From: an uncultured Chloroflexia bacterium
Lineage (GTDB): Bacteria; Chloroflexota; Anaerolineae; Anaerolineales; E44-bin32
Reading direction: 5' to 3'
Assembly (NCBI GenBank): GCA_963797485.1
Contig: CAWCPF010000003.1
Span: forward strand, 199,957-263,956
DNA: 64,000 nt
The notes below the pieces were generated by a model, which was not told the origin of the DNA, searched no databases, and saw only the letters and a program-made list of their open reading frames with translations. The stretch's first letter is position 1. Each line of letters opens with the position of its first letter. Positions 13,441-40,961 of this stretch are shown here, in pieces. A program made the translations under genes and the position numbers.

Positions 13441-13600
13441 CCTCACCCCCCGGCTCCTTGGACCACGATCCCCTTCCCCTGGGTTGGCTGCCAGCAGCTT
13501 AGATCCAGCTCATCCCAGACGGAGGGGTAAGGGGTGGGGGTAGACGCGCCACCCGGGTTGGAGCCCGGCCGGGAAGTGGGTTTCAATACGGAGAAGGGGC
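13441..13600. repeat. GC-rich palindromic (REP/MITE-like) intergenic repeat, copy B
   Basis: Shares the core CCCCTGGGTTGGCTGCCAGCAGCTTAGATCCAGCTCATCCCAGACGGAGGGGTAAGGGGTGGGGGTAGAC and flanks (CCTCACCCCC upstream, TCAATACGGAGAAGGGG downstream) with copy A at 9398-9530. Confidence 0.7.
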
Positions 13601-15336: not shown

Positions 15337-16171
15337 ATGGCTTTCGGTTTGGGCCGAATGGACGTCTCCCCGGTCACACCCTGGATCATCCTGTGGGTTC
15401 TCCTGCCCCTGGTCTGCCTGCCTATGGCGGGCCTGGTGATCTACCGCCTCTACGGGCTGTGGACGGCTCGTTTTCGGCTCGATGGCGAGGGCTTCTACCT
15501 GTGGTGGGGGTTGAGTTTCGAGCAGATCCCGCTGGACCAGGTTGATGCGGTCCAGCCCGTCACACCCGAGTTTGCAGGCGTGGCCTTGGCGCCGGGTCTC
15601 TGGTGGCCCGGCTGCGCCGTGACCCATGCCCAGCTTGGCCAGGGCGCGCCGGCGGAGGTCTTTGCCGGAGGCGACCCCCGCTCGGGCGTGCTGGTGCGCA
15701 CCGTCAACAAGGCCTTCCTCGTCACGCCCGCCCAATCCGATAGGTTTGTGAATTCTTTCACAGAGGCCACTCGCCAGGGATCGCTGCGCCCCATCCCCGC
15801 CCAGTCGCATCGGCCCGACTTCCTGGTGGGAAGGGTATGGTCCGATCCCTGGGCTCGAGGCTCTGATGGTATTAGGGGCGGTCATCCCGCTCCTGCTGCT
15901 GGCCTTTGTCGGCTGGCGGGCGTCGATGTTGGTCGGGCCGGTGCCGTTTGGCTTTGACCAGTTCGGCAGCCCCGATCCGTTGGCGCCCCCGGGCCGGCTG
16001 CTGCTTCTGCCGTTGATGGCCGGGTTTGTCTGGCTGGCCGATGCCATGCTCGGGATATGGCTTTATCAGGCGCCGGACCGGCGCGGCCTGGCCTATACTG
16101 TGTGGCTGGCGGCTGTAATCAGTGGTGGGCTTCTGGCGGGAGCCGCTCTCCAATTGATATCCCAAGCTTGA
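15337..16171 (+). pseudogene. membrane protein (bPH-like N-terminal region), apparent +1 frameshift
   Basis: ORF 15337..15957 and the hydrophobic ORF 15866..16171 overlap in adjacent frames. The second frame is open from 15752. A join near 15850-15865 gives one continuous membrane protein. The alternative is two separate genes. Confidence 0.45.
15747..15762. promoter_or_regulatory. CRP/FNR-type palindrome TGTGA-N6-TCACA (site 3 of 8, intragenic)
   Basis: TTTGTGAATTCTTTCACAG inside the 15337 ORF, read as F-V-N-S-F-T. Confidence 0.4.
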
Positions 16172-23914: not shown

Positions 23915-24945
23915 GCCAGAGCACGACCGCGAAGCCCATCGAACGCCCCAGCCTGGTGGATGTCATCGGGGTAAAGAAGTGGTTTCCGGTTCAAACCGGA
24001 TTCGTCGAGCGCCTGATGTCCGGCCACACCGACTTCGTCAAGGCCGTAGATGGGGTGACGTTTTCCATCCGCAAAGGTGAAGTATTCGGCCTGGCCGGCG
24101 AAAGCGGCAGCGGCAAGACCACCACCGGCCGCCTGGTCATCCGGCTCGAAGAGCCGACCGACGGCAAGGTCCTGTTCGACGGAACCGACCTGGCGGAGTT
24201 GCACCCGGAGGCCCTGCGCCTGCTCCGGCGCCGCATGCAGGTCATTTATCAGGACCCCATGGCGTCACTCAATCCCAGAATGTCGGTCGGCGAAGCGCTG
24301 ACCCACCCGCTGGAAATCCACTATCCGGATCGAAAGGACGAATATCGCGACCTGGCGGTCGGAATGCTGGAGAGGGTCGGCTTGAGCCCGGCCGTCTATT
24401 TCCTTGACAAGTACCCGCATCAGATATCCGGCGGACAGCGGCAGAGGGTGGTCATCGCCCGCGCGCTGATCACACGGCCGGACCTGATCCTGGCGGACGA
24501 ACCCATCGCCATGGCGGATGTGAGCGTGCGCTCGCTGCTGCTGGATCTGATGAAGGAGCTGCGAAAAGAGTTCGACCTGACCTATCTGTTCATCACCCAT
24601 GACCTGGCGACGGCCAAGTACATCTGTGACCGAATTGGGGTGATGTACCTGGGCAAGCTGGTCGAGGTCGGTGATCTGCGCGAAGTCTACGGACATGCGC
24701 TGCATCCTTACACCCGGGCCCTGCTGGCGGCCGTGCCGGTGCCTGACCCCAAAGAGCGCCGCCAGACGCCGCTGCCCGAAGGCGAAATCCCCAGCGCCAT
24801 CAACCCGCCCTCCGGCTGCCGCTTCCACCCCCGCTGTCCGGTGGCCAGGCTGCCGCACTGCTCGCAGGAAGAGCCGGAGCTGCGCGAGTTGCGACCAGGT
24901 CACCAGGTCGCTTGTCACTACGCCGAGGATTTCCTCAACACCTAG
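23911..24945 (+). CDS. ABC transporter ATP-binding protein (DppF/OppF-like)
   Basis: Walker A GESGSGKTT, signature ISGGQRQRVVIARAL, Walker B ILADEP, C-terminal PPSGCRFHPRCP. ATGA overlap with the upstream gene. Confidence 0.9.
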   Translation: MSQSTTAKPIERPSLVDVIGVKKWFPVQTGFVERLMSGHTDFVKAVDGVTFSIRKGEVFGLAGESGSGKTTTGRLVIRLEEPTDGKVLFDGTDLAELHPEALRLLRRRMQVIYQDPMASLNPRMSVGEALTHPLEIHYPDRKDEYRDLAVGMLERVGLSPAVYFLDKYPHQISGGQRQRVVIARALITRPDLILADEPIAMADVSVRSLLLDLMKELRKEFDLTYLFITHDLATAKYICDRIGVMYLGKLVEVGDLREVYGHALHPYTRALLAAVPVPDPKERRQTPLPEGEIPSAINPPSGCRFHPRCPVARLPHCSQEEPELRELRPGHQVACHYAEDFLNT

Positions 24946-24974
24946 CCGTCGTCGAGCACAGCCCAAGGAGCCAT

Positions 24975-26123
24975 ATGGAAGCGTTCCAGGCGCGCGTGCA
25001 AGCATTCCAGACCCAGCTGAAGGACTCGGCCGAAGCGGCGTTCTTTCCGCTTTCGGCGGATATGCAGTATTTGACCGGGATCGAGCGCCCCTTTCCCAAT
25101 TTCGGGGCCACGCATCACCCGGGCGCCTGGCTTGAAGGCGTGTGGGTGGGGCTGACCGGAGAACCCGTCGTCACCCTGACCCGCATGTCGCGGGAGTTGA
25201 GCGGCGTCGTCGGCCAGGGGGCCTTCGAGACGAAAATCCTGGGAGACTGGGATGACCCGTCCGAGTTGGTTGGCGGAATCCTGACCAGGCTGGGCTGGAA
25301 GGACGGCGGAAGGCTGGCCATTGGCGAGGCAACCGCCGGAGAAACGGTGGTGGCCCTGTGTAAACTGCTGCCCGGGGTGATCTTTGTCGCGGCCACCGAG
25401 GTGCTGGCGACCCAGCGCCGAATTAAATCGGAAGACGAAATCGCCATCATGCGCCAGGCGGGGGCCATCACCGAGGCGGCCTTTGCGGCGGTCCTGGGCC
25501 AGCTGCAGCATGGCATGACCGAGCTGGACGTTGTGGCTGAAATCGACCTGCAGCTAAGGCGCGCCGGGGGACAGGGTCCGTCCTTCACCACCTCACTCTA
25601 TTGTTCCGGCCCCGAGCATCCGCTGGTCTTCGGACACACCGTCGAATCGATGCAGCGAGCGCTGGATCCGCCGGTGTGTGTCCTGTTCGATTTTGGGGCC
25701 ATTCACAAGGGCTACTGCTATGACTTTGGCCGGACGGTTTTCTTCGGCAGCCCGGCACCGGAAATGATCGAGATTCACCGGCTGGTAATGGACGCCCAGG
25801 CGGCCGGGATCGCCGCGCTGCAAGCGGGAGCCATGACCGCCGAGCAGGCTGATGCGGCGGCAAGGAAGGTGATCGAGCGGGCCGGCTACGGCGCGGCCTT
25901 CCGGCACCGGCTGGGGCATGCCATCGGGCTCGACGTGCATGAGGCCCCCTTCCTGACTTCCGGCGATCACACGCCCTTGGAACGTGGCATGCTCTTCACG
26001 GTCGAACCGAGCATCATGCACGACCAGGGGTTTTCGGCCCGAGTGGAAGACGTTGTGGCCGTCGAGGTCGGGGGCGGGGCGCCGCTGACACGCGGCCACC
26101 CCGGGCTCATCGTCATCGACTGA
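24975..26123 (+). CDS. M24 family metallopeptidase (Xaa-Pro aminopeptidase-like)
   Basis: Pita-bread-fold metal-ligand segments ..LFDFGAIHKGYCYDFGRT.., HRLGHAIGLDVHE, FTVEPS, and E near the C-terminus. AAGGAG precedes ATG 24975. Confidence 0.8.
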   Translation: MEAFQARVQAFQTQLKDSAEAAFFPLSADMQYLTGIERPFPNFGATHHPGAWLEGVWVGLTGEPVVTLTRMSRELSGVVGQGAFETKILGDWDDPSELVGGILTRLGWKDGGRLAIGEATAGETVVALCKLLPGVIFVAATEVLATQRRIKSEDEIAIMRQAGAITEAAFAAVLGQLQHGMTELDVVAEIDLQLRRAGGQGPSFTTSLYCSGPEHPLVFGHTVESMQRALDPPVCVLFDFGAIHKGYCYDFGRTVFFGSPAPEMIEIHRLVMDAQAAGIAALQAGAMTAEQADAAARKVIERAGYGAAFRHRLGHAIGLDVHEAPFLTSGDHTPLERGMLFTVEPSIMHDQGFSARVEDVVAVEVGGGAPLTRGHPGLIVID

Positions 26124-26202
26124 GCCGCGCCCCATCGGTCGCCGGCCGCCAGGCTTCTCCTTCACCCGTTCAACGCCGGTGTGAGCTTATAAGGAGCGAC
26201 AT

Positions 26203-27231
26203 TTGCCAGCCCAGGTGGCGGTGGTCATGCCTTGTCACAACGCCGGCCAGACCGTCGATCAGGCAATTGAGTCGATTGTCACCGGATCGATGGGCGACTT
26301 CGAGATTATCGTCGTTGACGACGGGTCGACCGATGACACCGTCGCCAGGCTGCAGGCATGGGCGGGCCGGGATGCCCGGCTGCATCTCATCCAGCTGCCC
26401 AGGGTTGGCCTGGTGCGGGCCCTGAATGCCGGCGTGAGCGCGGCCACGGCGCCGCTGCTGGCACGGATGGACGCCGACGATATCGCCATGCCTACGCGTC
26501 TCGAGAAACAGCTCGCGCTTTTGAATGCCCATCCGGGCCTGGCGGTGGTGGGATCATGGGTGCGCCCTTTCCCGGAGGAAGACGTCCGGGAGGGGTTTCG
26601 GTTGTACGTGGACTGGCTCAACAGCCTGGTGACGCCGAACTCCATGGCGCGTGAGATCTTCGTGGAGAGCCCGCTGGCGCACCCGAGCGTGGTCATGCGC
26701 GCCGAGTGGATCAAACGCGTCGGCGGCTATCAGGACCACGGCTGGCCGGAGGACTATGACCTGTGGCTGCGGCTGTATCTCGAAGGGGCAGCCTTCGGGA
26801 AAGTGCCCGAGGTCCTGCTATTGTGGCGAGAACACCCGGCTCGGGCGACGCGCACCGACAGCCACTATTCGGTTGAGAACTTCCTGCGAGCCAAAGCCGC
26901 GTACCTGGCTCAAGGGCCGCTGGCCGGCTGCGACGGCGTGATCGTATGGGGGGCGGGTCAGATGGGCAAGCGCCTTTCGAAGCATCTGCTCAAGCACCAA
27001 GTTCCGCTGGCGGTCTTTATCGACATCGACCCAAAGAAGATCGGCCGGGAGCGGCGGGGACTTCCCGTCGAGCCGGTCGAGGCGCTCGAGCGCTGGTGGG
27101 GCTCCTTTGAGCACCCGGCTGTGCTGGCGGCGGTCGGCTCGCGCGGTGCGCGGGCCTTGATCCGCGAGCAGCTTAACGCGCGGCGGGCTGGTCGAAGGTC
27201 GGGACTGGTGGGCCGTGGCCTGACCAACTGA
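26203..27231 (+). CDS. family 2 glycosyltransferase with C-terminal Rossmann-like domain
   Basis: VVMPCHNAGQTVDQAIESI, VVDDGSTDDT and RMDADD, then VIVWGAGQMGKRL. The last ~15 codons may be affected by an indel near 27183; the alternative frame ends ..GLVEGRDWWAVA at 27223. Confidence 0.75.
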   Translation: MPAQVAVVMPCHNAGQTVDQAIESIVTGSMGDFEIIVVDDGSTDDTVARLQAWAGRDARLHLIQLPRVGLVRALNAGVSAATAPLLARMDADDIAMPTRLEKQLALLNAHPGLAVVGSWVRPFPEEDVREGFRLYVDWLNSLVTPNSMAREIFVESPLAHPSVVMRAEWIKRVGGYQDHGWPEDYDLWLRLYLEGAAFGKVPEVLLLWREHPARATRTDSHYSVENFLRAKAAYLAQGPLAGCDGVIVWGAGQMGKRLSKHLLKHQVPLAVFIDIDPKKIGRERRGLPVEPVEALERWWGSFEHPAVLAAVGSRGARALIREQLNARRAGRRSGLVGRGLTN

Positions 27232-27234
27232 GTT

Positions 27235-27250
27235 TGTGAAGGATTTCACA
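27235..27250. promoter_or_regulatory. CRP/FNR-type palindrome TGTGA-N6-TCACA (site 4 of 8)
   Basis: TTTGTGAAGGATTTCACAT in the 43-nt gap between two convergent stop codons (27231 and 27275). Confidence 0.4.
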
Positions 27251-27274
27251 TGAAAGCCGCGATGGCGGCGGGCA

Positions 27275-27883
27275 TCAAACCCGATCGAGATGAGCGGAGC
27301 GCCATGGGCGCGGGATAAAGCGCGGGACCTGCGCCTGGTAGCGCCGGTAGGGCTCGCCGAAGCTTCGAAGCAGTTTGCGCTCTTCGAACAGGCTGCCGAT
27401 GTAGAGATAGGCGGTCAGGCCGAGGTCCAGGGCCAGCACGCTGCTGGTCATCAGGGGCGTGAACCAGATGAACAGCAGGCCCCCGGTGTACAGCGGGTGG
27501 CGCATGTAGCGGTACAGGCCCGACGCCACGAGCTGGTCCCCTCCGGTGTCATCCACCAGCTGGCTCAGCCCGAGGAAGTCCATCGGGCCCGTCTGGAGCA
27601 GCCCGATCACGACCAGCCCGGCGCCCACGGCTTGCAGCGCCAGGCTCCCGAGCACCCAGGGCATCTCAATCCGGTACAAGGTCGTCCCCGGCGCCAGCGC
27701 GGGCACTGCCAACACCGGCAGCAGGGTGAGGCCCGCCAGCAGATTGAAGAACAGGCGATAGCCGCGCTGGGCGGTCTTTCCCCAGCGGCGGGTCGCCTGC
27801 TGCTTGGCCCACGTGCCGGCCAACAGACTGTGAAAGGCGCCGTAAGCGGCGACGGCGAACAGAGTGAGCGCAAAACCGGCCAT
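27275..27883 (-). CDS. isoprenylcysteine carboxyl methyltransferase / PEMT-family membrane methyltransferase
   Basis: 202 aa from ATG 27883. Polytopic, with GLYRYMRHPLYTGGLLF and EERKLLRSFGEPYRRY. The 398-aa track ORF upstream of 27883 is antisense to the DinB-like gene. Confidence 0.75.
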   Translation of the reverse strand: MAGFALTLFAVAAYGAFHSLLAGTWAKQQATRRWGKTAQRGYRLFFNLLAGLTLLPVLAVPALAPGTTLYRIEMPWVLGSLALQAVGAGLVVIGLLQTGPMDFLGLSQLVDDTGGDQLVASGLYRYMRHPLYTGGLLFIWFTPLMTSSVLALDLGLTAYLYIGSLFEERKLLRSFGEPYRRYQAQVPRFIPRPWRSAHLDRV

Positions 27884-28003
27884 GAACCTCTGGCCTCCGG
27901 GCCCTTGCCGACGGGTTGGAACGGGCAGATCGATGATACTCGATTGGCGGGAAGCGCGCCCTTCAGGGACCCCATGGTAGAATGCGCGCTGGAGGGTTGT
28001 CCT

Positions 28004-28468
28004 ATGAACGCCGACCAGTACTTCGACCACTGGCAGGTGGTCTGGCGTGACCTGATGCGGGCCGTCGCCATGCTCAAAGATTCCGATCTGGACGTGCGCC
28101 CGGCACAGGCCTATCCGCGCACGGTCGGTGACATCTTGAGGCACATGATCCGCCTGGAGAACGGGTGGATTCACTTCGTGATCCGGCGTGAGCTCCCCGC
28201 CTGGCCGGATGCCAATCCAAGCCAGCCCCAGACGGTCGCCGAGTTGCGCCTGGCCCTGGAGGAAACCCACAAGCGGACTTTTGACTATCTGGCCACCGTC
28301 CCGGTTGAGGATTTCAACCGCATCATCCAGGTCCCGGGAGATGGCACGCCGAAGCTCGGCTGGATCTTGTGGCACGTGTTGGAACAACAGATACACCACC
28401 GGGGCGAGCTGTTCCTTTGCCTGAGCCTGTTGGGATACGACCGCCCGAAGACCGACCGCCCACAGTAG
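28004..28468 (+). CDS. DinB-family (DinB_2/YfiT-like) protein
   Basis: 154 aa from ATG 28004, with spaced His residues typical of the four-helix bundle (..ILRHMIRLE.., ..WHVLEQQIHHRGEL). Confidence 0.65.
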   Translation: MNADQYFDHWQVVWRDLMRAVAMLKDSDLDVRPAQAYPRTVGDILRHMIRLENGWIHFVIRRELPAWPDANPSQPQTVAELRLALEETHKRTFDYLATVPVEDFNRIIQVPGDGTPKLGWILWHVLEQQIHHRGELFLCLSLLGYDRPKTDRPQ

Positions 28469-28491
28469 CACCAGACCATAAGGACGGGCGC

Positions 28492-29712
28492 TTGAGCGAC
28501 CCCATACGCCTGCTCCACTTTGCCGATTTGCACGTCGGCATGGAGAACTACGGGCGACTGGACCCGGCCACCGGGACGTCGACGCGCGTGCGCGATTTCC
28601 TCGACCGCCTGGACGAGGTGATCGACTACGGCCTCGAACATGGCGCCGACCTGGCCATCTTCGCCGGGGATGCTTTCAAGAACCGCGACCCCGATCCAAC
28701 CCAGCAGCGCGAGTTCGCCAGCCGCATTAAGCGGCTGGCAGACGCCGTGCCGACCCTGCTCCTGGTCGGCAATCATGACATGCCGGGTATGGCCGCCAGG
28801 GCCAGCAGCCTCGACATCTTCCGGGCGCTGGACGTGCCCGGGGTGATGGTTGGACACACCCCCGGCGGGCAGGTGATCGAGACAAGGCGGGGCCCGGTCT
28901 ATCTCGCATGGCTGCCTTACCCGATGCGCAACCGGCTGCTATCGCAAGAGGAAAACCGCGGCAAGACCCTGGAGGAGTTGGAGGCCGCGCTCAAGGAAAC
29001 TGTCTCGCTTATCTTGCGCGACCTGGCGCACGAGGCCGGCGCGCACGCCATGCCCCGCGTGCTGGCCGCACACCTCTCGGTCGCCGAGGCCAAACTGGGC
29101 TCAGAACGGAGCGTGATGCTTGGCCGGGACGTCGCCGTCACGACGTCGGGCCTGGCCGATGAGGTCTGGGACTACGTGGCCCTGGGCCACATTCACAAGC
29201 ATCAAGCCCTCAACGCCGGCGGCAGGCCGCCGGTGGTCTACAGCGGGTCTTTGGAGCGCATCGACTTTGGCGAGGAGGCCGAGGAAAAGGGCTTCTGCTG
29301 GGTCGAGCTGAAACGTGAGGCCACACAATGGCGTTTTGTGCCCGTCCGGGCGCGGCCTTTCCACACCTTGCGGGTCGATGTGCGCCAGGCTGAGGAGCCG
29401 ACGTCGGCCGTCATCGCCGCCCTGGACAAGACCCCGGACGGCGCCGTCGTGCGTGTGATCGTCCGGCTGCGGTCATCGCAACAGGCCGGGCTGCGAGACC
29501 GCGATATCCACGCCGCGCTGCCAGACGCCGCCAGCGTCGTCGTGATTCGTGAAGTGGACACAGAGCTGCGAGCGCGTCTGGGCAACCTGGCCCCGGAGGC
29601 GCTGTCGCCGATCGAGCTGGTGCGAGCTTACTTGGAAGCCCGCTCCGTCGAGCCGGATCGGCTCTCGGCCCTGCTGGCCGAGGCCGCCGAGCTGTTCAGC
29701 CTAACCGGCTAG
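28492..29712 (+). CDS. sbcD: exonuclease SbcD (Mre11-type nuclease subunit)
   Basis: LLHFADLHVG, FAGDAFK, GNHD and GHIH phosphoesterase motifs. TTG 28492 is preceded by AAGGACGGG. The track start 28369 would overlap the DinB-like gene. Confidence 0.85.
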   Translation: MSDPIRLLHFADLHVGMENYGRLDPATGTSTRVRDFLDRLDEVIDYGLEHGADLAIFAGDAFKNRDPDPTQQREFASRIKRLADAVPTLLLVGNHDMPGMAARASSLDIFRALDVPGVMVGHTPGGQVIETRRGPVYLAWLPYPMRNRLLSQEENRGKTLEELEAALKETVSLILRDLAHEAGAHAMPRVLAAHLSVAEAKLGSERSVMLGRDVAVTTSGLADEVWDYVALGHIHKHQALNAGGRPPVVYSGSLERIDFGEEAEEKGFCWVELKREATQWRFVPVRARPFHTLRVDVRQAEEPTSAVIAALDKTPDGAVVRVIVRLRSSQQAGLRDRDIHAALPDAASVVVIREVDTELRARLGNLAPEALSPIELVRAYLEARSVEPDRLSALLAEAAELFSLTG

Positions 29713-29718
29713 CCGTCC

Positions 29719-29862
29719 ATGATGGTTGAAAAGGCGCAACCATAATGGTTGAGAAGGCGCAACCACTTGGACCAGCGCAGGTGCTGGCATAATGGTTGAG
29801 AAGGCGCAACCACCTGTACCAGCGCAGGTGCTGGCATAATGGTTGAGAAGGCGCAACCATGA
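29719..29862 (+). repeat. tandem 47-bp repeat array of hairpins / overlapping micro-ORFs between sbcD and sbcC
   Basis: ATGGTTGA(A/G)AAGGCGCAACCA occurs four times (29722, 29745, 29792, 29839). Two full 47-bp units also carry CCAGCGCAGGTGCTGG. The array reads as MMVEKAQP*, MVEKAQPLGPAQVLA*, MVEKAQPPVPAQVLA*, MVEKAQP*, linked by TAATG/ATGA overlaps into the sbcC ATG at 29859. Confidence 0.9.
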
Positions 29863-31952
29863 TCCCCGTCGAACTCCAGGTTTGGAACTTCCTGGCCTAT
29901 CGAGACCCCGGGCCATTGCGGCTGGATGGGATTCACGTGGCCTGCCTGGTCGGGCCGAACGGCGCCGGAAAGTCGTCGCTCCTGGATGCCATCACCTGGT
30001 GCGTCTGGGGCAAAGCGCGTAGTAACACAGCCGACGAGCTCATCCACCAGGGCCAGGACGAGATGCGGGTCAGTTTGACGTTCGACCAGGCCGGGGCGCG
30101 CTATCGCGTCATGCGCCAGAGGAAGAGCGGCAAACGAGGCGCGTCACTGCTCGAATTTCAAGCTTGGGACGCAGCCGCCGAGGTGTGGGTGCCCATGTCG
30201 GAGGGGTCCATCCGCGAGACCCAGGACAAGATCGACCAGACGCTCAGACTGGACTACGACACGTTTGTCAACTCGGCCTTTCTGGTGCAGGGGCGGGCGG
30301 ACGAGTTCACCACCAAAACCCCCAGCCAGCGCAAGCAGGTGCTGGCGAATGTGCTTGGGCTGTCCGTCTGGGAGGTGTACGAGGCGAGGGCCAAAGAGCG
30401 CATCCAGGCCACCCGCGATCAGATTCACCGCATCGAAGGCCGGCTGGAGGAAGTCGAGCGTGACCTGGCCCGGCGGGACGAGCATTCCACCGAACTGACG
30501 GCGGCCGAGGCGGCCGCAGTGCAGGCGGCCGCCAAGCTGAGCGCGGCCGAGAAGCAGTGGACGGATCAGGAGCACACTCGCAGCCAGCTGCTCAGCATGC
30601 AGCGTCAGATGGAGGATCTTTCACGCCGCATAGACGGCCGCACGAAGGATCTGCGTGAGGCGCAGGACGAACTGGCCGGAGCACGGGCGCGCGCGGACAA
30701 GGCCGCATTGGAGGCCGCCATCGCCGAAAGCCGCCGCGAGTTGGACCAGCTGGCTCAAGTCCAGCAGGCCGTGGACGAGGCCCAACGGCAGCGCTCAACC
30801 GCAGCCGAAGAATCGGCCAGGCTCAAGGGCATCAATCAGTTGCTTGGACCCGAAACGGAGCCGATGAAATCCAGGGCGCAGACTCTGGAGAGCGCCCGCG
30901 AGCCTATTTGCCCGACCTGCGGACAGACCCTGACCGACGACCACCGTCACCAGTTGGTGGCCGACCTGAAGCGTGAAATCGAGATGCGGCGCGAAAGCTA
31001 TCGGGCCAATCTCGATCTGATCAAGGCCCTGGACGATGAGCAGGCGCGCCTCGAGACCGGCCTGAAAGACCTGCAGGCCCGGGCGGCACGCCGAGGCCAG
31101 GTGGAGCGGCAGCTTGCCGCGGCCGAGGCCGACTTGAAACATGCCGATGAAAGCCATGTGCGGGCCGACCGGCTGGCGGCCCGGGCGGCCGAGTGGCAGG
31201 GGCAGCTGGCCGAGGATGAGGCGGCCCGCGCCGAGCTCCGCCGCCAGATAGAGGCGACGGAAGCCCAACTGAAGACCGTATCGGCGAGCGCCGCGGAAGT
31301 CGAGCGGCTGCGGCTTGAAAAGCGATTGGCCGATGAACGCGTCGGCGGGGCGCGCCAGCAGCTGGCCGCCCTGACTTCGATGGACGCACAGCGCGTGGAG
31401 CTGCGGAAGACATGGGATCAGGAAGCAGCCGCCTTGGCCGCGCTGGAAGAACTTCGTGAGGCCTTCAGCAAGCGCGGGGTTCCGGCCATGATCATCGAGA
31501 CGGTCGTTCCGGAGCTTGAGCGCCACGCCAATGAACTGCTCTCACGCCTTACCGACGGCCGGCTGAATGTGCGCATTGAGACCCAGCGTGAGATCAAGAC
31601 CGGGGACCTGCGCGAGGCCCTGGATATCATCATTTCCGATGAGCTGGGGAGTCGCCCATACGAACTCTACTCGGGCGGCGAGGCGTTCCGGATTAACTTC
31701 GCCATCCGGATTGCATTGTCCCGGTTGCTGGCCAACCGCTCCGGGGCACAGCTCCGGAGTTTGTTCATGGACGAGGGGTTTGGCACGCAGGACGCCGGAG
31801 GCCGCGAGCACCTGATTGAGGCCCTTAACAGCATCCAGGAAAGCTTTGATCGGATCCTGGTCATCACGCACATCGAAGAGTTGAAGGATGCCTTTCCGGC
31901 GCGGATCGAAGTCCGGAAAACCCCCCAGGGTTCAGTATTCAGCCTGAGTTGA
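29859..31952 (+). CDS. sbcC: exonuclease SbcC (Rad50/SMC-type ATPase subunit, short form)
   Basis: Walker A GPNGAGKSS, long coiled coil with zinc hook CPTCGQ, signature YSGGEAFRINFAIRIAL, Walker B LFMDEGFG. Confidence 0.85.
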   Translation: MIPVELQVWNFLAYRDPGPLRLDGIHVACLVGPNGAGKSSLLDAITWCVWGKARSNTADELIHQGQDEMRVSLTFDQAGARYRVMRQRKSGKRGASLLEFQAWDAAAEVWVPMSEGSIRETQDKIDQTLRLDYDTFVNSAFLVQGRADEFTTKTPSQRKQVLANVLGLSVWEVYEARAKERIQATRDQIHRIEGRLEEVERDLARRDEHSTELTAAEAAAVQAAAKLSAAEKQWTDQEHTRSQLLSMQRQMEDLSRRIDGRTKDLREAQDELAGARARADKAALEAAIAESRRELDQLAQVQQAVDEAQRQRSTAAEESARLKGINQLLGPETEPMKSRAQTLESAREPICPTCGQTLTDDHRHQLVADLKREIEMRRESYRANLDLIKALDDEQARLETGLKDLQARAARRGQVERQLAAAEADLKHADESHVRADRLAARAAEWQGQLAEDEAARAELRRQIEATEAQLKTVSASAAEVERLRLEKRLADERVGGARQQLAALTSMDAQRVELRKTWDQEAAALAALEELREAFSKRGVPAMIIETVVPELERHANELLSRLTDGRLNVRIETQREIKTGDLREALDIIISDELGSRPYELYSGGEAFRINFAIRIALSRLLANRSGAQLRSLFMDEGFGTQDAGGREHLIEALNSIQESFDRILVITHIEELKDAFPARIEVRKTPQGSVFSLS

Positions 31953-31990
31953 GGCCGATCGCATCCGGGGAGATGGCAGCCCGGACGAGA

Positions 31991-34900
31991 CTACACCGCT
32001 TGCTGCCCGCTGGCGGGGCGTTCGCCTCGCAGGTCCGCCACCAGCGGAAGCCATACGGTGACCTTGGTGCCTCGGTCATCGTTGGGCTCGACCGTGATCT
32101 GTCCGCCGTGGATCTCGGCGATCTCTTTGCAGATCGCCAGGCCCAGGCCCGTCCCGGGCGCTCCCGTAGACACGCTGGCCTTGCCCCGAAAGAATCGATC
32201 GAAGATTCGGCCACGCTCTTCGGAGGCGATGCCCAATCCGGTGTCCTCGAAGGCCGCCGTGATCCAGGCCTGGCCGGAACGTGCCTTGGAATGCGTTCGC
32301 AGCGTGATGCGTCCACCCGAAGGAGTGTAGTTCATGGCGTTGGTGAGCAGGTTGGTGAAAACCTGTGTGAGCAAACGGGCATCACCCATCGCTGGCGGCA
32401 GGTCAGGCGAGGCTTCCATGATCATCATCAGACCCTTCCTGGCTGCCAGCGCCCGCCGATCGTCGTAAAGCGCCTGCAGGATCCCGTTCAAATCAAACGG
32501 CCGTGGCTGGAAGGGCGTTGAGCCCGATTCGAGTCTCGACAGCGACAACAGATCATCGATCAGGTGCGCCAGGCGCTCGCTTTCGCGCGTCAGGGTTGCG
32601 ATGTAGGTGGATGAACGCTCAGGGTCATGCGTCTCCCGGAGCAGATCGACATACAGGCGGATGTTGGTGAGGGGGGTGCGCAGCTCGTGAGAGACATCCG
32701 AGACGAACTGTGACTTGAGCCGGTCGAGCTCCTTCAGCGCGCTGATGTCGTGCTGCACGGCGACGAAGTTGACCACCGCCTTGGTATCCCCCATGACGGG
32801 GGTGATGGCCACGGCGACTTCGTAGGTTCGGCCGTCCTTGTGGCGGTTGACCAGCTCGCCGTGCCAGGCCCTGCCGGCGCGCAAAGTATCCCACAGGTCG
32901 CTTACGACCTGGGCCGGGTTGAATGCATCGTCCACCAGCCCGACCTCGCCGGCAACCACCTCCGAGCGCCGGTAGCCGCTGATGCGCTCCCACGCCGGGT
33001 TGACATACTCAATGCCGCCTTTCGGATCGGTGACCAGGACAGCATCACCGATGTTTTTCAAGATGGTGTCCAGGCGGTCACGCTCGGAGCGGAGAGCGGT
33101 TTCCAGTGCCTTGCGTTCGGAGATGTCGAGCACCAGGATGGTGATGCCCTGAGGCTGGCCCTGGTCGTCAACGATCCGGTTGACGGCAAAGATGACCGGA
33201 ATCGACTGGCTTTCGGAGCCCAGCACTTCAACCTCATAGATCTCCTGCGCCGGCAGGCCGAACGAGGCCTGGGGCCGCAAGCGGTCGATCATCACCCCGC
33301 GCAGAGCCTCGGGGAAGATGCGCTCGGCGGCCTTCTCGATGCCGGTGCCGCGCAGATCTTCGACATCCAGCCCGAGCAGGCCGGTGAAGACATGGTTGAC
33401 GAAGGACAACGTCCCCTGGCTGTCGATGTGGGCGATTCCGGCCAGCGACGTCTCCAACAAGCCGCGGTAGCGGGCTTCAGACAGGGCCAGATCACGCGTG
33501 CGCTCGACGACTTCGCCTTCCAGCCGCTGCGCCTGGGATTCGATCTGGCCGTACAAATCGGCGTTCTCGATGGCGACGGCCGCCTGGGCGGCGAAGGCGG
33601 TCAGGAGATCAAGATCGGACGGTGTGAACGGGCGCTCGACACCCAGGCGGCGAACCGCCATGACGCCCACCGTCCGTTGCCGCGCCACCAGGGGTGCCAT
33701 GGCCAGGCATTCGGGCTCATTGCTGGGTGTGCCCGGCACCTGCAGGCTCCGCGGGTCGGTGTTCGGGTCGTTGATCACCAGAGGCTTGCTGGTGGCCATG
33801 ACGTGCCCGGCTAGGCCGGTGCCGGGTTCGAGTTCGAGCGCCATAAGGGATTCGGCATCGGGATCCAGGGCCACCAGGCAGCGCAACGTGCCTCGCTGTG
33901 GGTCGAGCATATGGATGCGACTGCCGTCGGCTTCAAACAGGTCCTTGGCCTGTTCGGCGATCAGGCGCAGCACCGTTTCCAGGTCCAGCGAGCCCGAAAT
34001 GGAGTGTGACGTGCGGATCAGCGCCTGGGATTCTTCGGCTCGAAGACGGATCTCGTCGTACAGACGAGCGTTTTTGATTGCCAGCGCCGACATGTTGGCG
34101 ATCGCCTGGGTCATTTCGACCTGGTCCTTGCGAAAGGCATCGCCCTGTCGGGTCTTGAACAGTCCCATGGCACCCACCGGATCATCGCCGGCGTAGAGCG
34201 GCACCCCGAGGAACGCGTGCAGGCCGGCGCCGGCCCATTCGGACAGGGCCTGCATGTGAGCGCCGTACTCGTCGAGCAGGATGGGTTCCGCCTTATCGAT
34301 CAGCAGCCAGGCGATGCCCTGCCCGCGCGGCGAGGGTTTCAACCTGAGATGGTCCGGCAGCCCAAAGGTGTAGGGGTAGGTCAGGCTCTGCCCGTCAGGA
34401 TCGATCAGGGCCAAAGCGCCGGCGTCGGCGTCGGTAACCTCGACGGCCACGCGGATGACGCGCTCGAGGATGGTCGACTGATCGAAGGCGCTGGCCACCG
34501 CCTCGGCCACCTGGTTGCGCAACCGCTCCCGGCTGAGCGCCAGCTGCATTTCCTCGCGCGAGCGGACATGGCTGATGGCAATCGCCACGTGGTCGGCCAA
34601 CGAACCCATGATGGGCAGATCATCCGAAGTCAGCCAATGGGCATTGACCGTAATGATTCCCAGCGGCTGGTCCGACACACTCAAGGGGGCCACGATGGTC
34701 GGGGTATCGCCGCCGATCAGGCGCAGGATAGCCGGCAGCAGGGCGTGCAGGCGTCCGGGCAGCAGGTCGGCGAGCGTTTGTCGGCGGTCGGTGATGAAGA
34801 TCGGCTCGCCGCGGGCCATGGCGGTCTGGAAAGGCGACACGCCGTTCGGCTCGAAGCGGTAGCCCAGCAGATCGATCCCGGTCAAGCGGCGGATAGTGTG

Positions 34901-35164
34901 CTCGACTACCGGGCTCAAGACGCGGCTGCGCACCACCAGCATCCCCTGGTCGTCGAGTAAGAAGACGCCGCCGATGAGCCTGAGCTTGCGGAGCTCTTCC
35001 GACACAGCGCGCAAGACGTCGGCTTCGGAGGAGGTAGCGCGCCGAGCGACGGCTGCGGCCGCATGCAGCACCGAGAGCATGCTGACTTGGAATGAGGATG
35101 GCTGGCGATCGGAGCCCCCGCGACGCAGCCACTTGGGCCAGGGCATGTGCACACCTGCCGCCAT
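31991..35164 (-). CDS. multi-sensor (GAF/PAS) histidine kinase
   Basis: 1057 aa. Several GAF- and PAS-like modules, H-box SHELRTPLT, and N/G1/G2 boxes (NLLTNAMNY, DTGLGI, GTGLGLAI). No response regulator gene is adjacent. Confidence 0.85.
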   Translation of the reverse strand: MAAGVHMPWPKWLRRGGSDRQPSSFQVSMLSVLHAAAAVARRATSSEADVLRAVSEELRKLRLIGGVFLLDDQGMLVVRSRVLSPVVEHTIRRLTGIDLLGYRFEPNGVSPFQTAMARGEPIFITDRRQTLADLLPGRLHALLPAILRLIGGDTPTIVAPLSVSDQPLGIITVNAHWLTSDDLPIMGSLADHVAIAISHVRSREEMQLALSRERLRNQVAEAVASAFDQSTILERVIRVAVEVTDADAGALALIDPDGQSLTYPYTFGLPDHLRLKPSPRGQGIAWLLIDKAEPILLDEYGAHMQALSEWAGAGLHAFLGVPLYAGDDPVGAMGLFKTRQGDAFRKDQVEMTQAIANMSALAIKNARLYDEIRLRAEESQALIRTSHSISGSLDLETVLRLIAEQAKDLFEADGSRIHMLDPQRGTLRCLVALDPDAESLMALELEPGTGLAGHVMATSKPLVINDPNTDPRSLQVPGTPSNEPECLAMAPLVARQRTVGVMAVRRLGVERPFTPSDLDLLTAFAAQAAVAIENADLYGQIESQAQRLEGEVVERTRDLALSEARYRGLLETSLAGIAHIDSQGTLSFVNHVFTGLLGLDVEDLRGTGIEKAAERIFPEALRGVMIDRLRPQASFGLPAQEIYEVEVLGSESQSIPVIFAVNRIVDDQGQPQGITILVLDISERKALETALRSERDRLDTILKNIGDAVLVTDPKGGIEYVNPAWERISGYRRSEVVAGEVGLVDDAFNPAQVVSDLWDTLRAGRAWHGELVNRHKDGRTYEVAVAITPVMGDTKAVVNFVAVQHDISALKELDRLKSQFVSDVSHELRTPLTNIRLYVDLLRETHDPERSSTYIATLTRESERLAHLIDDLLSLSRLESGSTPFQPRPFDLNGILQALYDDRRALAARKGLMMIMEASPDLPPAMGDARLLTQVFTNLLTNAMNYTPSGGRITLRTHSKARSGQAWITAAFEDTGLGIASEERGRIFDRFFRGKASVSTGAPGTGLGLAICKEIAEIHGGQITVEPNDDRGTKVTVWLPLVADLRGERPASGQQAV

Positions 35165-35255
35165 GCGAACCTAGAGGGCAGGGACTGGCCGCCCTCCATC
35201 AGGCATCGAACGATAGTGTACCCCGCCTGACCGGGCGTGCAATCAACCGAACGGT

Positions 35256-36263
35256 TCAGGGCAGGCTGGCTTCGTTCGCCTTGAACCAGGCCACGGCCTG
35301 CTGGATGCCGTCGGCCACGCTGTGGCCGGGTTCAAAACCCAGCTCGTTTGTGGCGCGCGACGTATCGTAGTAGAAATGAACACCCGCCAGAGGGAAAAGG
35401 CTCAACCAGTTCGGCAGGGGCACCCATCGGCTGAGCGCGATGGCCGCGCCTCCCAGCGCGCGCAAGGGGAAAGGCGGCATATCGAGGCGCGGGCCGGGAC
35501 GTCCCAGGATGCGGGCGGTCATGGCCAACAGGGCGTGATGAGTCATGTTCTCGGCCCCAAGGATGTAACGGCGGCCTGGCTTCCCGCGCTCGAGCGCGGC
35601 GACGTGGCCCGCAACAACGTCGTCAATGTGAATGGCGTTCAGGCCGCCTGAAGCCCCCAGTGGGGGGAGCCGACCGGAAAGCAGACGGCCGACAATGCTG
35701 GCCCGGTAGCGGTACACGTCGCCGGGGCCGAAGATCACCGAGGGGTTGACGATCACGGCCGGGAGCCCGGCCTTCACGGCCTGCAGGACCTCGGCTTCAG
35801 CGCGGTCCTTGGCGAAGCCATAGGGCCAGATGCGGGCGGACGTATTCCAGGCGTGGGTCTCATCGAGCAACGGCGCGTCCGCGCCATCCGGGCCCGGGTC
35901 TCTATCCGGCACCCCAAGGGCCGCCACTGAAGACGTGTGCACAAAACGGCCGACACCGGCCTTCAAAGCCGCCGACAGGACGTGGCGCGTTCCGGCGACA
36001 TGGCTGGCGATCATGTGCTCGGGTTTCTTCCAGCGGGTGACTTCGCCGGCGCAATGGAAGATGACCTCTTGCGCATGCGCCGCCGCCTCGAGCGAGGGCG
36101 GGTCCATCAGGTCGCCCAGCACAACCTCAACTGCCAGGCCGTCGAGGGCCAGGCGGCTGCTGGTGGGCCGGACCATGGCGCGAACCGCGTGCCCATGGAG
36201 ACTGAGGGCCCGGCAGATGCGTGACCCGAGGAAGCCGGAGGCGCCGGTGACGAGAACCCTCAT
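35256..36263 (-). CDS. NAD-dependent epimerase/dehydratase family protein
   Basis: VLVTGASGFLGSRI Rossmann motif, 335 aa, extended SDR architecture. Confidence 0.8.
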   Translation of the reverse strand: MRVLVTGASGFLGSRICRALSLHGHAVRAMVRPTSSRLALDGLAVEVVLGDLMDPPSLEAAAHAQEVIFHCAGEVTRWKKPEHMIASHVAGTRHVLSAALKAGVGRFVHTSSVAALGVPDRDPGPDGADAPLLDETHAWNTSARIWPYGFAKDRAEAEVLQAVKAGLPAVIVNPSVIFGPGDVYRYRASIVGRLLSGRLPPLGASGGLNAIHIDDVVAGHVAALERGKPGRRYILGAENMTHHALLAMTARILGRPGPRLDMPPFPLRALGGAAIALSRWVPLPNWLSLFPLAGVHFYYDTSRATNELGFEPGHSVADGIQQAVAWFKANEASLP

Positions 36264-36278
36264 GAACAGTTCACCGGG

Positions 36279-37501
36279 TCAGTCGAGCCACTCGATGATG
36301 GTGGCTTCGCCCTGCCCCACGCCGACGCACAGGGTGGCCAGGCCGTAGAACGGGCGAGGCTGGTTGGGGGCACGCCGCCGCATTTCGTGGACCAGCGTGG
36401 TGAGAATCCGGGCCCCCGAGCATCCCAGGGGGTGGCCCAAGGCGATGGCGCCGCCGTTGACGTTGGTGATCTCGTGGCGCATGCCTAATTCACGCATGAC
36501 CGCCAGCGATTGCACGGCGAAGGCTTCGTTCAACTCAATGAGCCCAATGTCATCCAGAAGTCAAGCCGGCGCGCGCCAGGGCCTTACGGGTGGCCGGGAT
36601 GGGGCCCAGGCCCATCGTGCGCGGGGCGACGCCGGCGGCGGCCGAAGCCACCACCCGCGCCATCGGACGCACGCCGATGTCGTCGGCCCGTTCGGCGCTG
36701 AGGAGCACCAGGGCGGCCGCCCCGTCGTTGATCCCGGAGGAGTTGCCGGCCGTCACCGTGCCGCCGGAGCGGAAAGCAGGCCGAAGCTTGGCCAGCGCTT
36801 CCAGGGATGTATCGCGGCGCGGCCGTTCGTCGGTGTCGACCACAACCGCATCGCCCTTGCGTTGGGGAACGTGCACCGGGACGATCTCCTCGGCGAAGCG
36901 TCCCAGAGTCTATGGCGGCAACGGCGCGGCGGTGGCTTTCGAAGGCAAACGCGTCCTGGTCCTGGCGGCTGATGTCGCGTGTGAGCTCGTACACGTTTTC
37001 AGCAGTCTCGCCCATGGATTCGTTGCCGACCAACTCCTTGAGGCGCGGATTAGGGAAGCGCCACCCGAGCGTCGTGTCCCAGGCGGTCAAGTCGCCCCAC
37101 GGGTAGGCCGGCTCCGGTTTGGGGAGGGCGTAGGGTGCCCGGGACATGCTTTCGACGCCCCCGGCGACATAGGCTTGGCCCTCACCGGCCTTGATGGCTC
37201 GGTGGGCGGCGTTGACCGCCTGCAAGCCGGAGGCACACAGGCGGTTGAAAGTCACCGCCGCCACCTCGACCGGGAGGCCGGCCAGCAGGGCGGCCATGCG
37301 GGCCACGTTGCGGTTGTCCTCGCCGGCCTGATTGGCGCACCCGAGGTAAACTTCTTCCAGGATTGAGGCGTCCACGCCGGCCAAGCGCACAGCCTCAGCT
37401 ATCACCCGAGCGGCTAGATCATCCGGGCGAACAGCCGCCAGGGCCCCGCCATGGGCACCGATGGGGGTGCGGACGGCCGAGACGATCACGGCTTCGGGCA
37501 T
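36279..37501 (-). pseudogene. acetyl-CoA acetyltransferase (thiolase), two +1 frameshifts
   Basis: The N-terminal frame has [10 protein letters not shown] (active Cys). The middle frame has [17 protein letters not shown]...[17 protein letters not shown]. The C-terminal frame has NEAFAVQ...[17 protein letters not shown]...CVGVGQG. Shifts lie near 36901 and 36552-36558. Confidence 0.85.
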
Positions 37502-38654: not shown

Positions 38655-38689
38655 CTGTTGCGAGGAGTCTTGACGTACGGGGAGGATGT

Positions 38690-38795
38690 GGCCTTGGATA
38701 AAGAACCATGGGTGGCCGAGTTCGCGGGCACGTTTGGGCCGGTGCTCGTCGGGGCGGGTGCAGTGGCGATGGGAAGCGGCGGCGGGGTCGAGGCC
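38690..38795 (+). pseudogene. 5' fragment of an aquaporin gene (paralogous to 40329..40961)
   Basis: 38704-38790 matches 40339-40425 at roughly 90 percent identity by eye and encodes KEPWVAEFAGTFGPVLVGAGAVAMGSGG. Similarity ends abruptly, and no NPA motifs follow. Confidence 0.75.
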
Positions 38796-38953
38796 GCGTC
38801 TACCCGTCGAATTCATCTTGAATGCGAGCGCGGTCATCTTGGAGGTGGCACTTTGAGACAAGGCCAATCCTGCTGCGCGCCGGTGACCACTGCCGGAGGC
38901 CTTATACTGGCGCCTGCTATCGGACGACCACGAGAGTTCCTTGAGGGACGGCC

Positions 38954-40060: not shown

Positions 40061-40328
40061 CTGGACCGTGCAACAGACGCCGATGATTTGTTCAACGTCT
40101 CCCCGGCCCTGCGGCGTAATCCCCGGGGAAACCCGATGTGAGTTGCAGTGTTCTTGGGCCGAGCATTTGGCCTGACCTGTAAGCGTTAGCCACGCTAGGC
40201 GGACGTCATGTGAGCCGCCGCTCTGATCGTGGCCGGTGTGATCCCCCATCGGATCCACTCACTGGCGTGCACACTTTCGTGCTTGGATGGTGGTCAGCGA
40301 GATCATTTGACCGAATGAGGAGGCTGTT

Positions 40329-40961
40329 GTGGACACAAAACCATGGGTTGCCGAGTTTGCGGGCACGTTCGGGCTGGTGTTCGTCGGGGCAGGTGCAGTG
40401 GCGGTGGGAAGCGGCGGGCTGGTCGGTGCAGCGTTGGCCCACGGCCTGATTCTGGCAGCGATCGTGGCGGCCCTGGGGGCAACCTCGGGAGCCCATGTCA
40501 ATCCGGCTGTCACGCTCGCGGTCTGGATTCGCCGAGGTATCGAAACTCGAGTGGCCGCGGCCTATTGGGTGGTTCAGCTCTTAGGAGCAATTGCGGCGGG
40601 ATTCGCCCTTCGCTGGGTTCTGGGCGGCACCGACAGCGGGTTGGGAGCAACGACTTTGGGCTCGGTGTCGCCCATACAGGGTGCGTTGGTCGAAGCGATC
40701 CTGACCTGCCTTTTGGCCACCGTCGTCTTGCGCACGGCCTTACGCAAGAGTCTTGGCAAGTCTGGCCCGCTGGCGATCGGGTTCACTCTGGGGGCCGCCA
40801 TCTTGATGGCCGGCCCTTTGACTGGTGGGTCTTTAAATCCAGCTCGGACCCTCGGTCCGGCCATCGCTAGCGGCCAATTCGCCGATCTGTGGGTCTACCT
40901 GGTCGGGCCGGCCGCCGGCGCGGGTCTGGCGGCGCTGCTCGATTGGGCGCTTGAGCGCTGA
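40329..40961 (+). CDS. MIP-family channel (aquaporin/aquaglyceroporin)
   Basis: 210 aa, GTG start, two NPA boxes (SGAHVNPAVT, GGSLNPARTLGPA), six hydrophobic segments. Confidence 0.85.
   Translation: MDTKPWVAEFAGTFGLVFVGAGAVAVGSGGLVGAALAHGLILAAIVAALGATSGAHVNPAVTLAVWIRRGIETRVAAAYWVVQLLGAIAAGFALRWVLGGTDSGLGATTLGSVSPIQGALVEAILTCLLATVVLRTALRKSLGKSGPLAIGFTLGAAILMAGPLTGGSLNPARTLGPAIASGQFADLWVYLVGPAAGAGLAALLDWALER

Follow-up and report, generated by a model that had tools for sequence, protein, structure and literature searches.

A start-anchored tandem repeat array between sbcD and sbcC in an Anaerolineales genome is most likely a tolerated copy-number variant

The window analyzed here, a stretch of 64,000 nucleotides (nt) from contig CAWCPF010000003.1 of an uncultured Chloroflexia bacterium, carries on its plus strand an operon with the genes for the two subunits of the DNA-repair nuclease SbcCD, and the repeat-filled spacer between these genes is the subject of this work. 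The upstream gene, sbcD (28492 to 29712), codes for the Mre11-type nuclease subunit, a protein of 406 amino acids with a Pfam Metallophos domain, and ends with a TAG codon at 29710 to 29712. Its start is probably the TTG at 28492, which matches the 406-amino-acid gene call in a relative with 97% identity (locus L081); the longest open reading frame (ORF) covering sbcD in the ORF listing spans 28369 to 29712. The downstream gene, sbcC (29859 to 31952), codes for the Rad50-type ATPase subunit of 697 amino acids with an AAA_23 domain, the Rad50 zinc hook and the SbcC Walker B motif, and the N terminus of the protein (MIPVEL...) is kept in all relatives. The spacer (29713 to 29858, plus strand) is 146 nt long and consists almost entirely of a repeat array. 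A promoter and terminator scan found no promoter-like or terminator-like site in it. An N-terminal extension of SbcC through the array is ruled out by in-frame stop codons at 29790 to 29792 and 29844 to 29846, and because of the latter an upstream in-frame start of sbcC is impossible. Relatives of SbcD place the window in the Anaerolineales, phylum Chloroflexota.

The array is built from a 21-nt module, ATGGTTGA(A/G)AAGGCGCAACCA, which occurs at 29722, 29745, 29792 and 29839. A second element, CCAGCGCAGGTGCTGG, is present at 29772 and 29819 only and belongs to two units of 47 nt, which differ from each other at 2 positions. Tandem Repeats Finder (TRF) reports periods of 47 nt (2.5 copies, 97% match, score 224) and 23 nt (2.1 copies, 92%), and no other tandem repeat of the window comes close to the array, the next TRF scores being 67 and 54. 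On the plus strand, the array begins with module copy 1 (29718 to 29742, CATGATGGTTGAAAAGGCGCAACCA), which retains the ATGATGG form of the single-copy relative L081. It is followed by copy 2 (29741 to 29765, CATAATGGTTGAGAAGGCGCAACCA), found like copy 3 by the module search, and by a first 24-nt insert, copy a (29764 to 29787, CACTTGGACCAGCGCAGGTGCTGG), which contains CCAGC/GCTGG and CACYTG/CAGGTG inverted repeats and is absent from L081. Module copy 3 (29788 to 29812) is then followed by insert copy b, also of 24 nt (29811 to 29834, CACCTGTACCAGCGCAGGTGCTGG), a near-copy of insert a, and the array ends with module copy 4 (29835 to 29859), the working translation-initiation region of sbcC, which has the same layout from Shine-Dalgarno (SD) motif to ATG in L081. 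The module copies lie head to tail and in register, and they are 92 to 100% identical to each other (0 to 2 nt different). The 64-kb window contains no further copy of the 21-nt module at up to 3 mismatches, and shuffled sequences are expected to give 0 matches. When we searched the window for a donor of the 24-nt insert or of the 23-nt unit, the best hit, 12 identical nt in a row at 30335 in sbcC (E = 0.056), was considered to be due to chance.

Two other origins for the spacer were considered and rejected. A CRISPR array is ruled out: the two 24-nt "spacers" are 92% identical, there are just four repeats, and the array lies inside an operon. The spacer does not resemble a diverged duplicate of the 5' coding sequence of sbcC either, as 10 of 23 positions are identical by eye, 5 of them being the fixed ATGAT, which is not above chance.

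Read as coding sequence, the array is a chain of four micro-ORFs on the plus strand. Micro-ORF 1 (29719 to 29745, (PS)MMVEKAQP*) begins 6 nt past the sbcD stop, is in frame with sbcD beyond its TAG, and ends in a TAA that overlaps the next ATG. Micro-ORF 2 (29745 to 29792, MVEKAQPLGPAQVLA) and micro-ORF 3 (29792 to 29839, MVEKAQPPVPAQVLA) follow, and the TGA of micro-ORF 4 (29839 to 29862, MVEKAQP*) overlaps the sbcC ATG as ATGA. The spacings from stop to start along the chain are thus +6 nt for the first ATG behind the sbcD stop, followed by -1, -1, -1 and -4. The SD-like motif GAGAAGG lies at 29845 to 29851, 7 nt before the sbcC ATG at 29859. Hybridization to the anti-SD sequence, assumed to be canonical, is weak, with -4.6 kcal/mol for sbcC, -3.6 to -4.0 kcal/mol for the internal ATGs and -1.7 kcal/mol for the first ATG; values of -4 or lower are obtained in the same calculation for 35% of the ATGs of the whole window, and the SD-like motifs before the micro-ORFs are at background strength. 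We also considered the micro-ORF as a remnant of an ancestral C-terminal tail of SbcD and rejected this idea, the SbcD tails of the related loci L001 and L002 being unlike MVEKAQP. This anatomy agrees in full with a preliminary description of the stretch that was made from its letters: the identities of both genes, the sbcD stop at 29712, the sbcC ATG at 29859 and the 146-nt length of the spacer, the four module positions, the two 47-nt units with the second element, the micro-ORF translations and the three TAATG junctions followed by ATGA on the sbcC start were all borne out, with every coordinate and sequence.

The comparison with relatives showed that the copy number of the module varies. 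Homologues of SbcC include the window's own protein (P0001, on a contig of 1.46 Mb), one with 97% identity from a Logan assembly (P0002) and one with 79% identity (P0003). The contig with P0002 is L081 (sample SRR18214667), and its gene order is the same as in the window: DinB, sbcD and sbcC are followed by a GAF/PAS histidine kinase in the opposite orientation. Pairwise alignment of window positions 24743 to 36954 with L081 gave approximately 95% nucleotide identity over 12.2 kb and five indels only: four of 1 to 2 nt and, at the array, an insertion of 117 nt in the window. The segment missing from L081 (29722 to 29838 on the plus strand, a placement that is arbitrary by register) corresponds to 23 + 47 + 47 nt. 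The L081 junction, ...accggcTAGccgcccATGATGGTTGAGAAGGCGCAAGCATGatcccc, holds one 23-nt module in a spacer of 29 nt, and its micro-ORF of 8 codons, MMVEKAQA*, starts 6 nt past the sbcD stop and ends with ATGA on the sbcC start. The comparison of this spacer between related genomes, which the preliminary description had proposed as a check, therefore gives 4 modules in the window versus 1 in the 97% relative. As far as copy number is concerned, this is the outcome that the description had tied to a neutral tandem duplication. While the module copies of the array differ by 0 to 2 nt, third codon positions of sbcD and sbcC differ by 9 to 10% between the window and L081, and the spacer differs at 2 of 29 positions. 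The spacer thus appears to diverge at about the neutral rate, a pattern consistent with recent origin and neutral drift. A search with the N-terminal 213 amino acids of SbcC, aimed at contig fragments, found no other close relatives above 73% identity.

Are the two copy numbers real? A 31-mer in the L081 contig spans upstream unique bases plus the ATGATC of sbcC. The Logan contig is presumably a k=31 assembly, and on that assumption the single copy in L081 would be real and not a k-mer collapse. A wrong copy number in the window due to an assembly artefact is highly improbable. The copies are not identical, with 2 differences between the 47-nt units and the A/G difference in copy 1, which assembler stutter would not make; moreover, the 146-nt array is short enough for single reads to span it, and the source contig has a length of 1.46 Mb. 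As a separate observation, the window and L081 also differ at the probable start of a minus-strand PEMT-family gene at window position 27882, where CATG in the window stands against CATATG in L081, a small start-codon tandem indel.

More distant relatives have shorter spacers or none. In L082 and L083 (79% identity), the module is missing and the spacer measures 7 nt. In a neighbour-joining tree of SbcD, the window (146 nt) pairs with L081 (29 nt), followed by L082 (7 nt), by the pair of L001 and L002 (both at -4) and then by clades at -14. Among 137 relatives with resolved junctions, sbcD and sbcC overlap in 61 (49 by 14 nt, of the GTGATCCCGGTTGA type, and 12 by 4 nt, ATGA), while the spacer is shorter than 20 nt in 17 and at least 20 nt in 59; the E. 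coli genes overlap by 4 nt. Hence, the change ran from an overlap to 7 nt, 29 nt and then 146 nt, or an older array contracted in L081. With both histories, near-identical genomes differ in copy number.

We conclude that the array is probably a young, near-neutral and lineage-specific variable-number tandem repeat (VNTR) of the sbcC translation-initiation cassette, and most likely a tolerated copy-number variant rather than a conserved regulatory device. It has the properties of a VNTR, with head-to-tail copies, 4 modules versus 1 in L081, and CATGAT microhomology at the unit borders. A slipped tandem duplication of the ribosome-binding site and start region of sbcC was the last of the alternatives listed in the preliminary description, and the single module of the 97% relative supports it. 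The cassette in its single-copy state is ATGATGGTTGAGAAGGCGCAAGC of L081. Its 23-nt unit, CATGATGGTTGAGAAGGCGCAAG, is followed by CATGATCCCC, which places CATGAT direct repeats 23 nt apart, the second CATGAT being the sbcC start. Such repeats bracketing the unit would provide a standard substrate for slipped mispairing. The unit also holds GAGAAGG 7 nt before the sbcC ATG, an ATGATG start, and the 8-codon ORF with its TGA over the sbcC ATG.

We hypothesize that slipped-strand or unequal-recombination events duplicated this 23-nt cassette, which sits exactly at the sbcC start codon. Because the unit already ends in ATGA and its period of 23 nt is 2 modulo 3, duplication yields a chain of micro-ORFs with overlapping stops and starts automatically. 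One copy would have acquired a G-to-A change from ATGATG to ATAATG, a change common to the internal copies of the window, by which ATGA became TAATG and the overlap was kept. One copy would also have gained a 24-nt segment, CACYTGKACCAGCGCAGGTGCTGG, the length of which is a multiple of 3 and which has no in-frame stop, and the resulting 47-nt unit would then have been duplicated again. The expansion would be tolerated since the initiation region of sbcC remains intact in the last copy, and the micro-ORF chain may keep some ribosome hand-on across a gap that otherwise abolishes termination-reinitiation coupling. The repeat anatomy, the different copy numbers of close relatives, the direction of change from overlap to spacer, the lack of further copies in the sequence searched and the weakness of the SD motifs and hairpins are observed; the slippage mechanism, the near-neutrality and any residual coupling are what we infer.

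Several points weigh against this explanation. L081 is the sole close relative, and the array could be older, with L081 representing a contraction; the copy number of the window is that of the assembly; and the search within the window gave no donor for the 24-nt insert or for the 18 novel bases of the cassette. In addition, a micro-ORF that ends with ATGA on sbcC is retained in both genomes, and the periods of 23 and 47 nt as well as the 24-nt insert all preserve the chain. Mild selection for coupling-preserving variants is therefore conceivable. The insert, a multiple of three without an in-frame stop, is the only property of the chain that is not automatic, and its prior chance is roughly 1 in 4.

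Why, then, not regard the chain as a selected device? The preliminary description had suggested a termination-reinitiation relay that sets the SbcD:SbcC stoichiometry. In such a relay, ribosomes that finish sbcD would restart on micro-ORF 1 and pass through the micro-ORFs to sbcC via the TAATG and ATGA junctions, and the SbcC:SbcD ratio would be determined, and could be readjusted, by the module count. The anatomy permits this: the chain is unbroken from the sbcD stop to the sbcC start, and L081 retains a bridging upstream ORF that ends in ATGA. Direct reinitiation coupling is largely lost at gaps of approximately 20 to 38 nt and falls by 80 to 100% at +38 nt, and short overlaps are enriched among the genes of heteromeric complexes (PMC10666635). 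Given this drop at +38 nt, direct coupling across 146 nt would be lost, and a bridge would be needed for coupling, part of which a relay might in principle bring back. Moreover, ribosome delivery by short coupled ORFs is a recognized idea, exemplified by the MIRUs, or mycobacterial interspersed repetitive units (PMC12548453), and the unrelated arrays of L018 and L159, with a period of 44 nt (also 2 modulo 3), form chains too.

However, duplication of a unit with ATGA already at its end produces the chain automatically. We modeled chains by allowing, after each stop, a restart at an ATG or GTG no more than 4 nt upstream or 10 nt downstream of it. A complete chain was present in 17% of dinucleotide shuffles of the window spacer, and among 60 spacers of at least 20 nt we observed 18 chains versus 12.0 expected, a weak excess. 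Within the array family of the L005 type, only L005 has a chain and L090, L096 and L105 do not. Five sequential hand-ons would multiply the losses, the first having to cross +6 nt without an SD motif, and the array is missing from the 97% relative. The arrangement is not conserved among the relatives beyond chance (array absent in L081 and L082, null probability of 0.17). A relay is thus possible as an automatic by-product of the duplication and has a precedent in MIRUs, but it is not supported as a selected device, and we consider a selected relay unlikely. Together with the mobile element discussed below, it is the most plausible of the rivals to a tandem expansion; both are minority views.

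The hairpins of the array could suggest another kind of device. Each module can form a hairpin with an AUGGUUG/CAACCAU stem of 6 to 7 bp and an 8-nt loop (AGAAGGCG), with predicted energies of -6.5 to -8.1 kcal/mol in isolated modules, and in copy 4 the 3' arm abuts the sbcC start codon. Of the two hairpins in the preliminary description, this one is real but modest, whereas the CCAGC/GCUGG hairpin folds no better than shuffled sequence. A cis-regulatory array for sbcC would consist of protein sites (the palindrome ATGGTTG-N8-CAACCAT) or of a structured RNA element. It would be in line with the presence of a 7-bp inverted repeat in four copies and with the folding of the 181-nt region, which is somewhat better than that of shuffles (z = -2.4). 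Yet this z value is expected because the region contains repeats of a palindromic unit, which inflate the folding energy trivially. Furthermore, the stem is imperfect in the single-copy relative (CAAGCAT mismatch; -5.3 kcal/mol, z = -0.8), the conservation of the palindrome ends at two genomes, and Rfam gave no relevant match at E up to 10 in positions 29400 to 30200 and none at gathering score in the whole window. We give such a cis-regulatory role hardly any credence. The preliminary description had also remarked on a hairpin array within the operon of a hairpin-cleaving nuclease. With stems of 5 to 7 bp and a module stem that is imperfect in L081, this is best taken as a coincidence. We also rejected the hairpins as substrates of SbcCD itself, as their length is insufficient and the module stem lacks conservation; the palindromes on which SbcCD acts are far longer.

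MIRUs, described by Supply et al. in 1997 as summarized in PMC12548453 and PMC3184786, are the closest described analogue of the array. They insert at start codons and carry an internal ORF coupled to the gene at -4 nt, with little effect on expression (PMC12548453). Their units of 40 to 100 bp are present in 40 to 50 copies per genome, lie inside polycistrons, have ORFs that overlap the adjacent genes, contain internal inverted repeats and are flanked by short direct repeats at filled sites (PMC3184786). The array shares many of these traits. The stop of the small ORF of each unit overlaps the next start by -4 or -1 nt, and the unit lengths are 2 modulo 3; the unit contains an inverted repeat, the "filled" site is bordered by short direct repeats, and close relatives carry different numbers of copies. 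The sbcD-sbcC spacer is occupied by the array, the last copy of which terminates at the ATG of sbcC. The presumed consequence is also the same, namely, insertion or expansion with little harm to downstream translation. On the other hand, the unit of the window is presumably unrelated in sequence, comes from the phylum Chloroflexota and, with 23 or 47 nt, falls short of, or only just within, the 40 to 100 bp of MIRUs, and it occupies one locus in the 64 kb searched compared with approximately 40 to 50 copies per mycobacterial genome, dispersal being a trait that defines MIRUs. The array would thus work like a MIRU-VNTR locus and cannot be filed under a dispersed family.

Could the cassette nevertheless be a mobile mini-element of the MIRU kind, a dispersed 23-nt unit with its own coupled ORF that inserts at start codons, duplicates ATGAT as its target and then expands in tandem? 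The sites of L082 (...TGAgacgagcATGATcccc) and L081 (...TAGccgcccATGAT[ggttgagaaggcgcaagcATGAT]cccc, the bracketed insert being flanked by ATGAT) resemble an empty and a filled site, and the insert contains an inverted repeat as well as an ORF with a coupling distance of -4 nt, as described for MIRUs (PMC12548453, PMC3184786). However, the "empty" site comes from a relative at just 79% identity, and the 23-nt unit is far shorter than MIRUs (40 to 100 bp). There is no second copy of the cassette in the window at up to 4 mismatches, a weak test, given that MIRUs are on average more than 64 kb apart in Mycobacterium tuberculosis. The repeat unit has no copy elsewhere in 1.14 Mb of related loci, and the exact module gave 0 matches in JGI metagenomes. 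Likewise, the many copies and terminal inverted repeats of repetitive extragenic palindromic (REP) sequences or miniature inverted-repeat transposable elements (MITEs) were not found, the array being confined to a single locus in the sequence searched. A mobile element is, in our view, quite improbable.

The preferred explanation, a tandem expansion of the cassette, is in line with the properties of ordinary intergenic VNTRs: the copies lie head to tail and are 92 to 100% identical, CATGAT is present at the borders of the single-copy unit, and there is no conserved function. The array differs from them in that its unit is a complete initiation cassette, with SD-like motif, start, micro-ORF and overlapping stop, and therefore looks designed. 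It also resembles known cases of termination-reinitiation at overlapping ATGA and TAATG/TGATG (Huber et al. 2019 and 2023; PMC6728339, PMC10666635), as the ancestral sbcD/sbcC junction of the clade is a 4- or 14-nt overlap and the array re-creates overlaps of -1 and -4, but the known cases couple two real genes directly. We found no description in the literature of a multistep relay through several micro-ORFs outside the MIRU proposal. Heptamer direct repeats of the TAACTGA type upstream of start codons are known from Beggiatoaceae, Cyanobacteria and Bacteroidetes (MacGregor 2015, PMC4679880); the words Chloroflexi and Anaerolinea are absent from the text of that paper. Tandem repeats of this kind run up to the start codon at the same junction in L035, L120, L135, L137 and L142, whereas the window has a unit of 23/47 nt and no heptamer repeats.

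Indeed, other Anaerolineae carry arrays of their own at this junction, and this recurrence is the most interesting residue of our analysis. L005 (5246 to 5378), L090 (3746 to 3878), L096 (approximately 1808 to 1916) and L105 (61-nt spacer) have a different, older tandem array in the sbcD-sbcC spacer. Its unit of 24 nt, roughly CTGAGCRAWGYCGAAGCACYTGTR, is present in 2.5 to 5.3 copies among genomes with 88 to 100% SbcD identity, and L005 and L090 have identical SbcD proteins yet several substitutions within the array. The array finishes with a partial copy at the sbcC ATG; the relatives L004 and L091 have 24 nt. L018 (5275 to 5381) and L159 (approximately 1186 to 1277) have a 44-nt tandem unit that contains a decoy sbcC start (GGGGTGACCCC versus the true GGGGTGATCCC) and a perfect 9-bp hairpin, GCGCAGGGG-TGA-CCCCTGCGC. 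In L159, the sbcD stop itself lies within a repeat copy, and the sister loci L017 and L136 overlap by 4 nt. These arrays could have arisen by duplication of the ancestral overlapping GTGA/ATGA junction, which would have parted the stop from the start and seeded slippage. Heptamers, namely, (CAGTGAY)n, (TAACTGA)n and (CYGACCA)n in variable copy numbers, extend up to the sbcC ATG in the spacers of L035 (4866 to 4946), L120 (3732 to 3870), L121, L127, L135, L137, L142 and L144. The unrelated arrays with their 3' ends on the sbcC start are of independent origin, as indicated for L005 and L018 by the compact or overlapping junctions of their sister lineages.

Arrays are present in 10 of 46 sbcD-sbcC spacers compared with 11 of 438 other intergenic gaps of the same loci (odds ratio of 10.8), a count that is based on crude ORF calls and a TRF score of at least 50 and in which the lineages are not independent, representing approximately 4 to 5 clades. 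The simplest reason for this excess is the youth of the spacers, which were inserted where the genes once overlapped and are still recognizable as repeats; a functional reason is conceivable. A bolder reading is that the sbcD-sbcC junction of Anaerolineae is a recurrent birthplace of start-anchored repeat cassettes of unrelated sequence, such as the 23/47-nt unit of the window, the 24-nt unit of the L005 type, the 44-nt unit of the L018 type and the heptamers, which expand there and are kept as tunable bridges or attenuators of translational coupling between the two nuclease subunits. We regard it as speculative and doubtful. If it were true, a MIRU-like principle would operate outside mycobacteria, on a complex whose substrates are slipped or hairpin DNA, and if the recurrence reflected selection and not the youth of the spacers, repeat copy number would offer evolution a simple means of adjusting the stoichiometry of a heteromeric complex. 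The single locus of the window, a recent copy-number variant with no sign of a conserved function, matters little by itself. It is, however, a clean natural example of overlapping coupled genes that were pulled apart with the downstream start kept, and it shows in the Chloroflexota the cassette logic proposed for MIRUs, an SD-like motif, a micro-ORF and an ATGA overlap at the start codon.

Other variants of the junction were observed among the related loci. In L060 to L064, L066 to L068, L071, L072 and L122, the spacers of 135 to 223 nt contain heptamer repeats, (GACCATN)n or (GGTGGTC)n, which begin at the sbcD stop or shortly behind it, and inverted copies, (ATGGTCN)n or (GACCACC)n, which closely precede the sbcC start; pairing of the spacer ends could form a long stem that draws the stop and the start close to each other. 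L076 has a gap of 1117 nt between sbcD and sbcC (3851 to 4967) with an apparent extra gene, a histidine-rich membrane-protein-like sequence, inserted into the operon. L022 (JAIWHF010000016.1) is labeled as a Methanosarcinales archaeon, and its sbcDC locus with a 12-nt spacer is nearly identical to those of the Anaerolineales metagenome-assembled genomes L020 to L028; the label is probably due to bin contamination or mislabeling.

In a low-GC clade, sbcC does not follow sbcD (L047, 5325 to 5600; L052, 5335 to 5620; L054, 5325 to 5602; L070, 5318 to 5590; L045, 4240 to 4472). The region instead contains a promoter-like TTGACA-17-TATATT, a conserved element of approximately 130 nt (AGTCGGTTAAGGTCAA...GTTCACCGGCGATGCATCAGATAGGCCCGAA...TATCTGCCGACC...CATCGCTTGTGACGGGAGTTGCC), an SD-adjacent hairpin and a gene with repeats of the GTPGGPPAGEG type. 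RNAalifold predicts 36 pairs for the element, 2 of them with compensatory changes, and Rfam has no match to it at gathering score or at E up to 10. The element is a candidate for an undescribed leader or riboswitch.

Elsewhere in the window, three palindromes of the form TTTGTGAA-N4-TTCACA (TGTGA-N6-TCACA) lie at 15729 to 15762, 27217 to 27250 and 62421 to 62454. They resemble what we take to be the CRP/FNR consensus and are probably binding sites of a Crp-family regulator. The window also contains dispersed direct repeats of approximately 115 nt, with one pair at 9412 to 9526 and 13470 to 13584 (75% identity) and another at 38682 to 38799 and 40317 to 40434 (81%), the first pair being marked by a G-rich CATCCCAGGGGGAGGGG motif.

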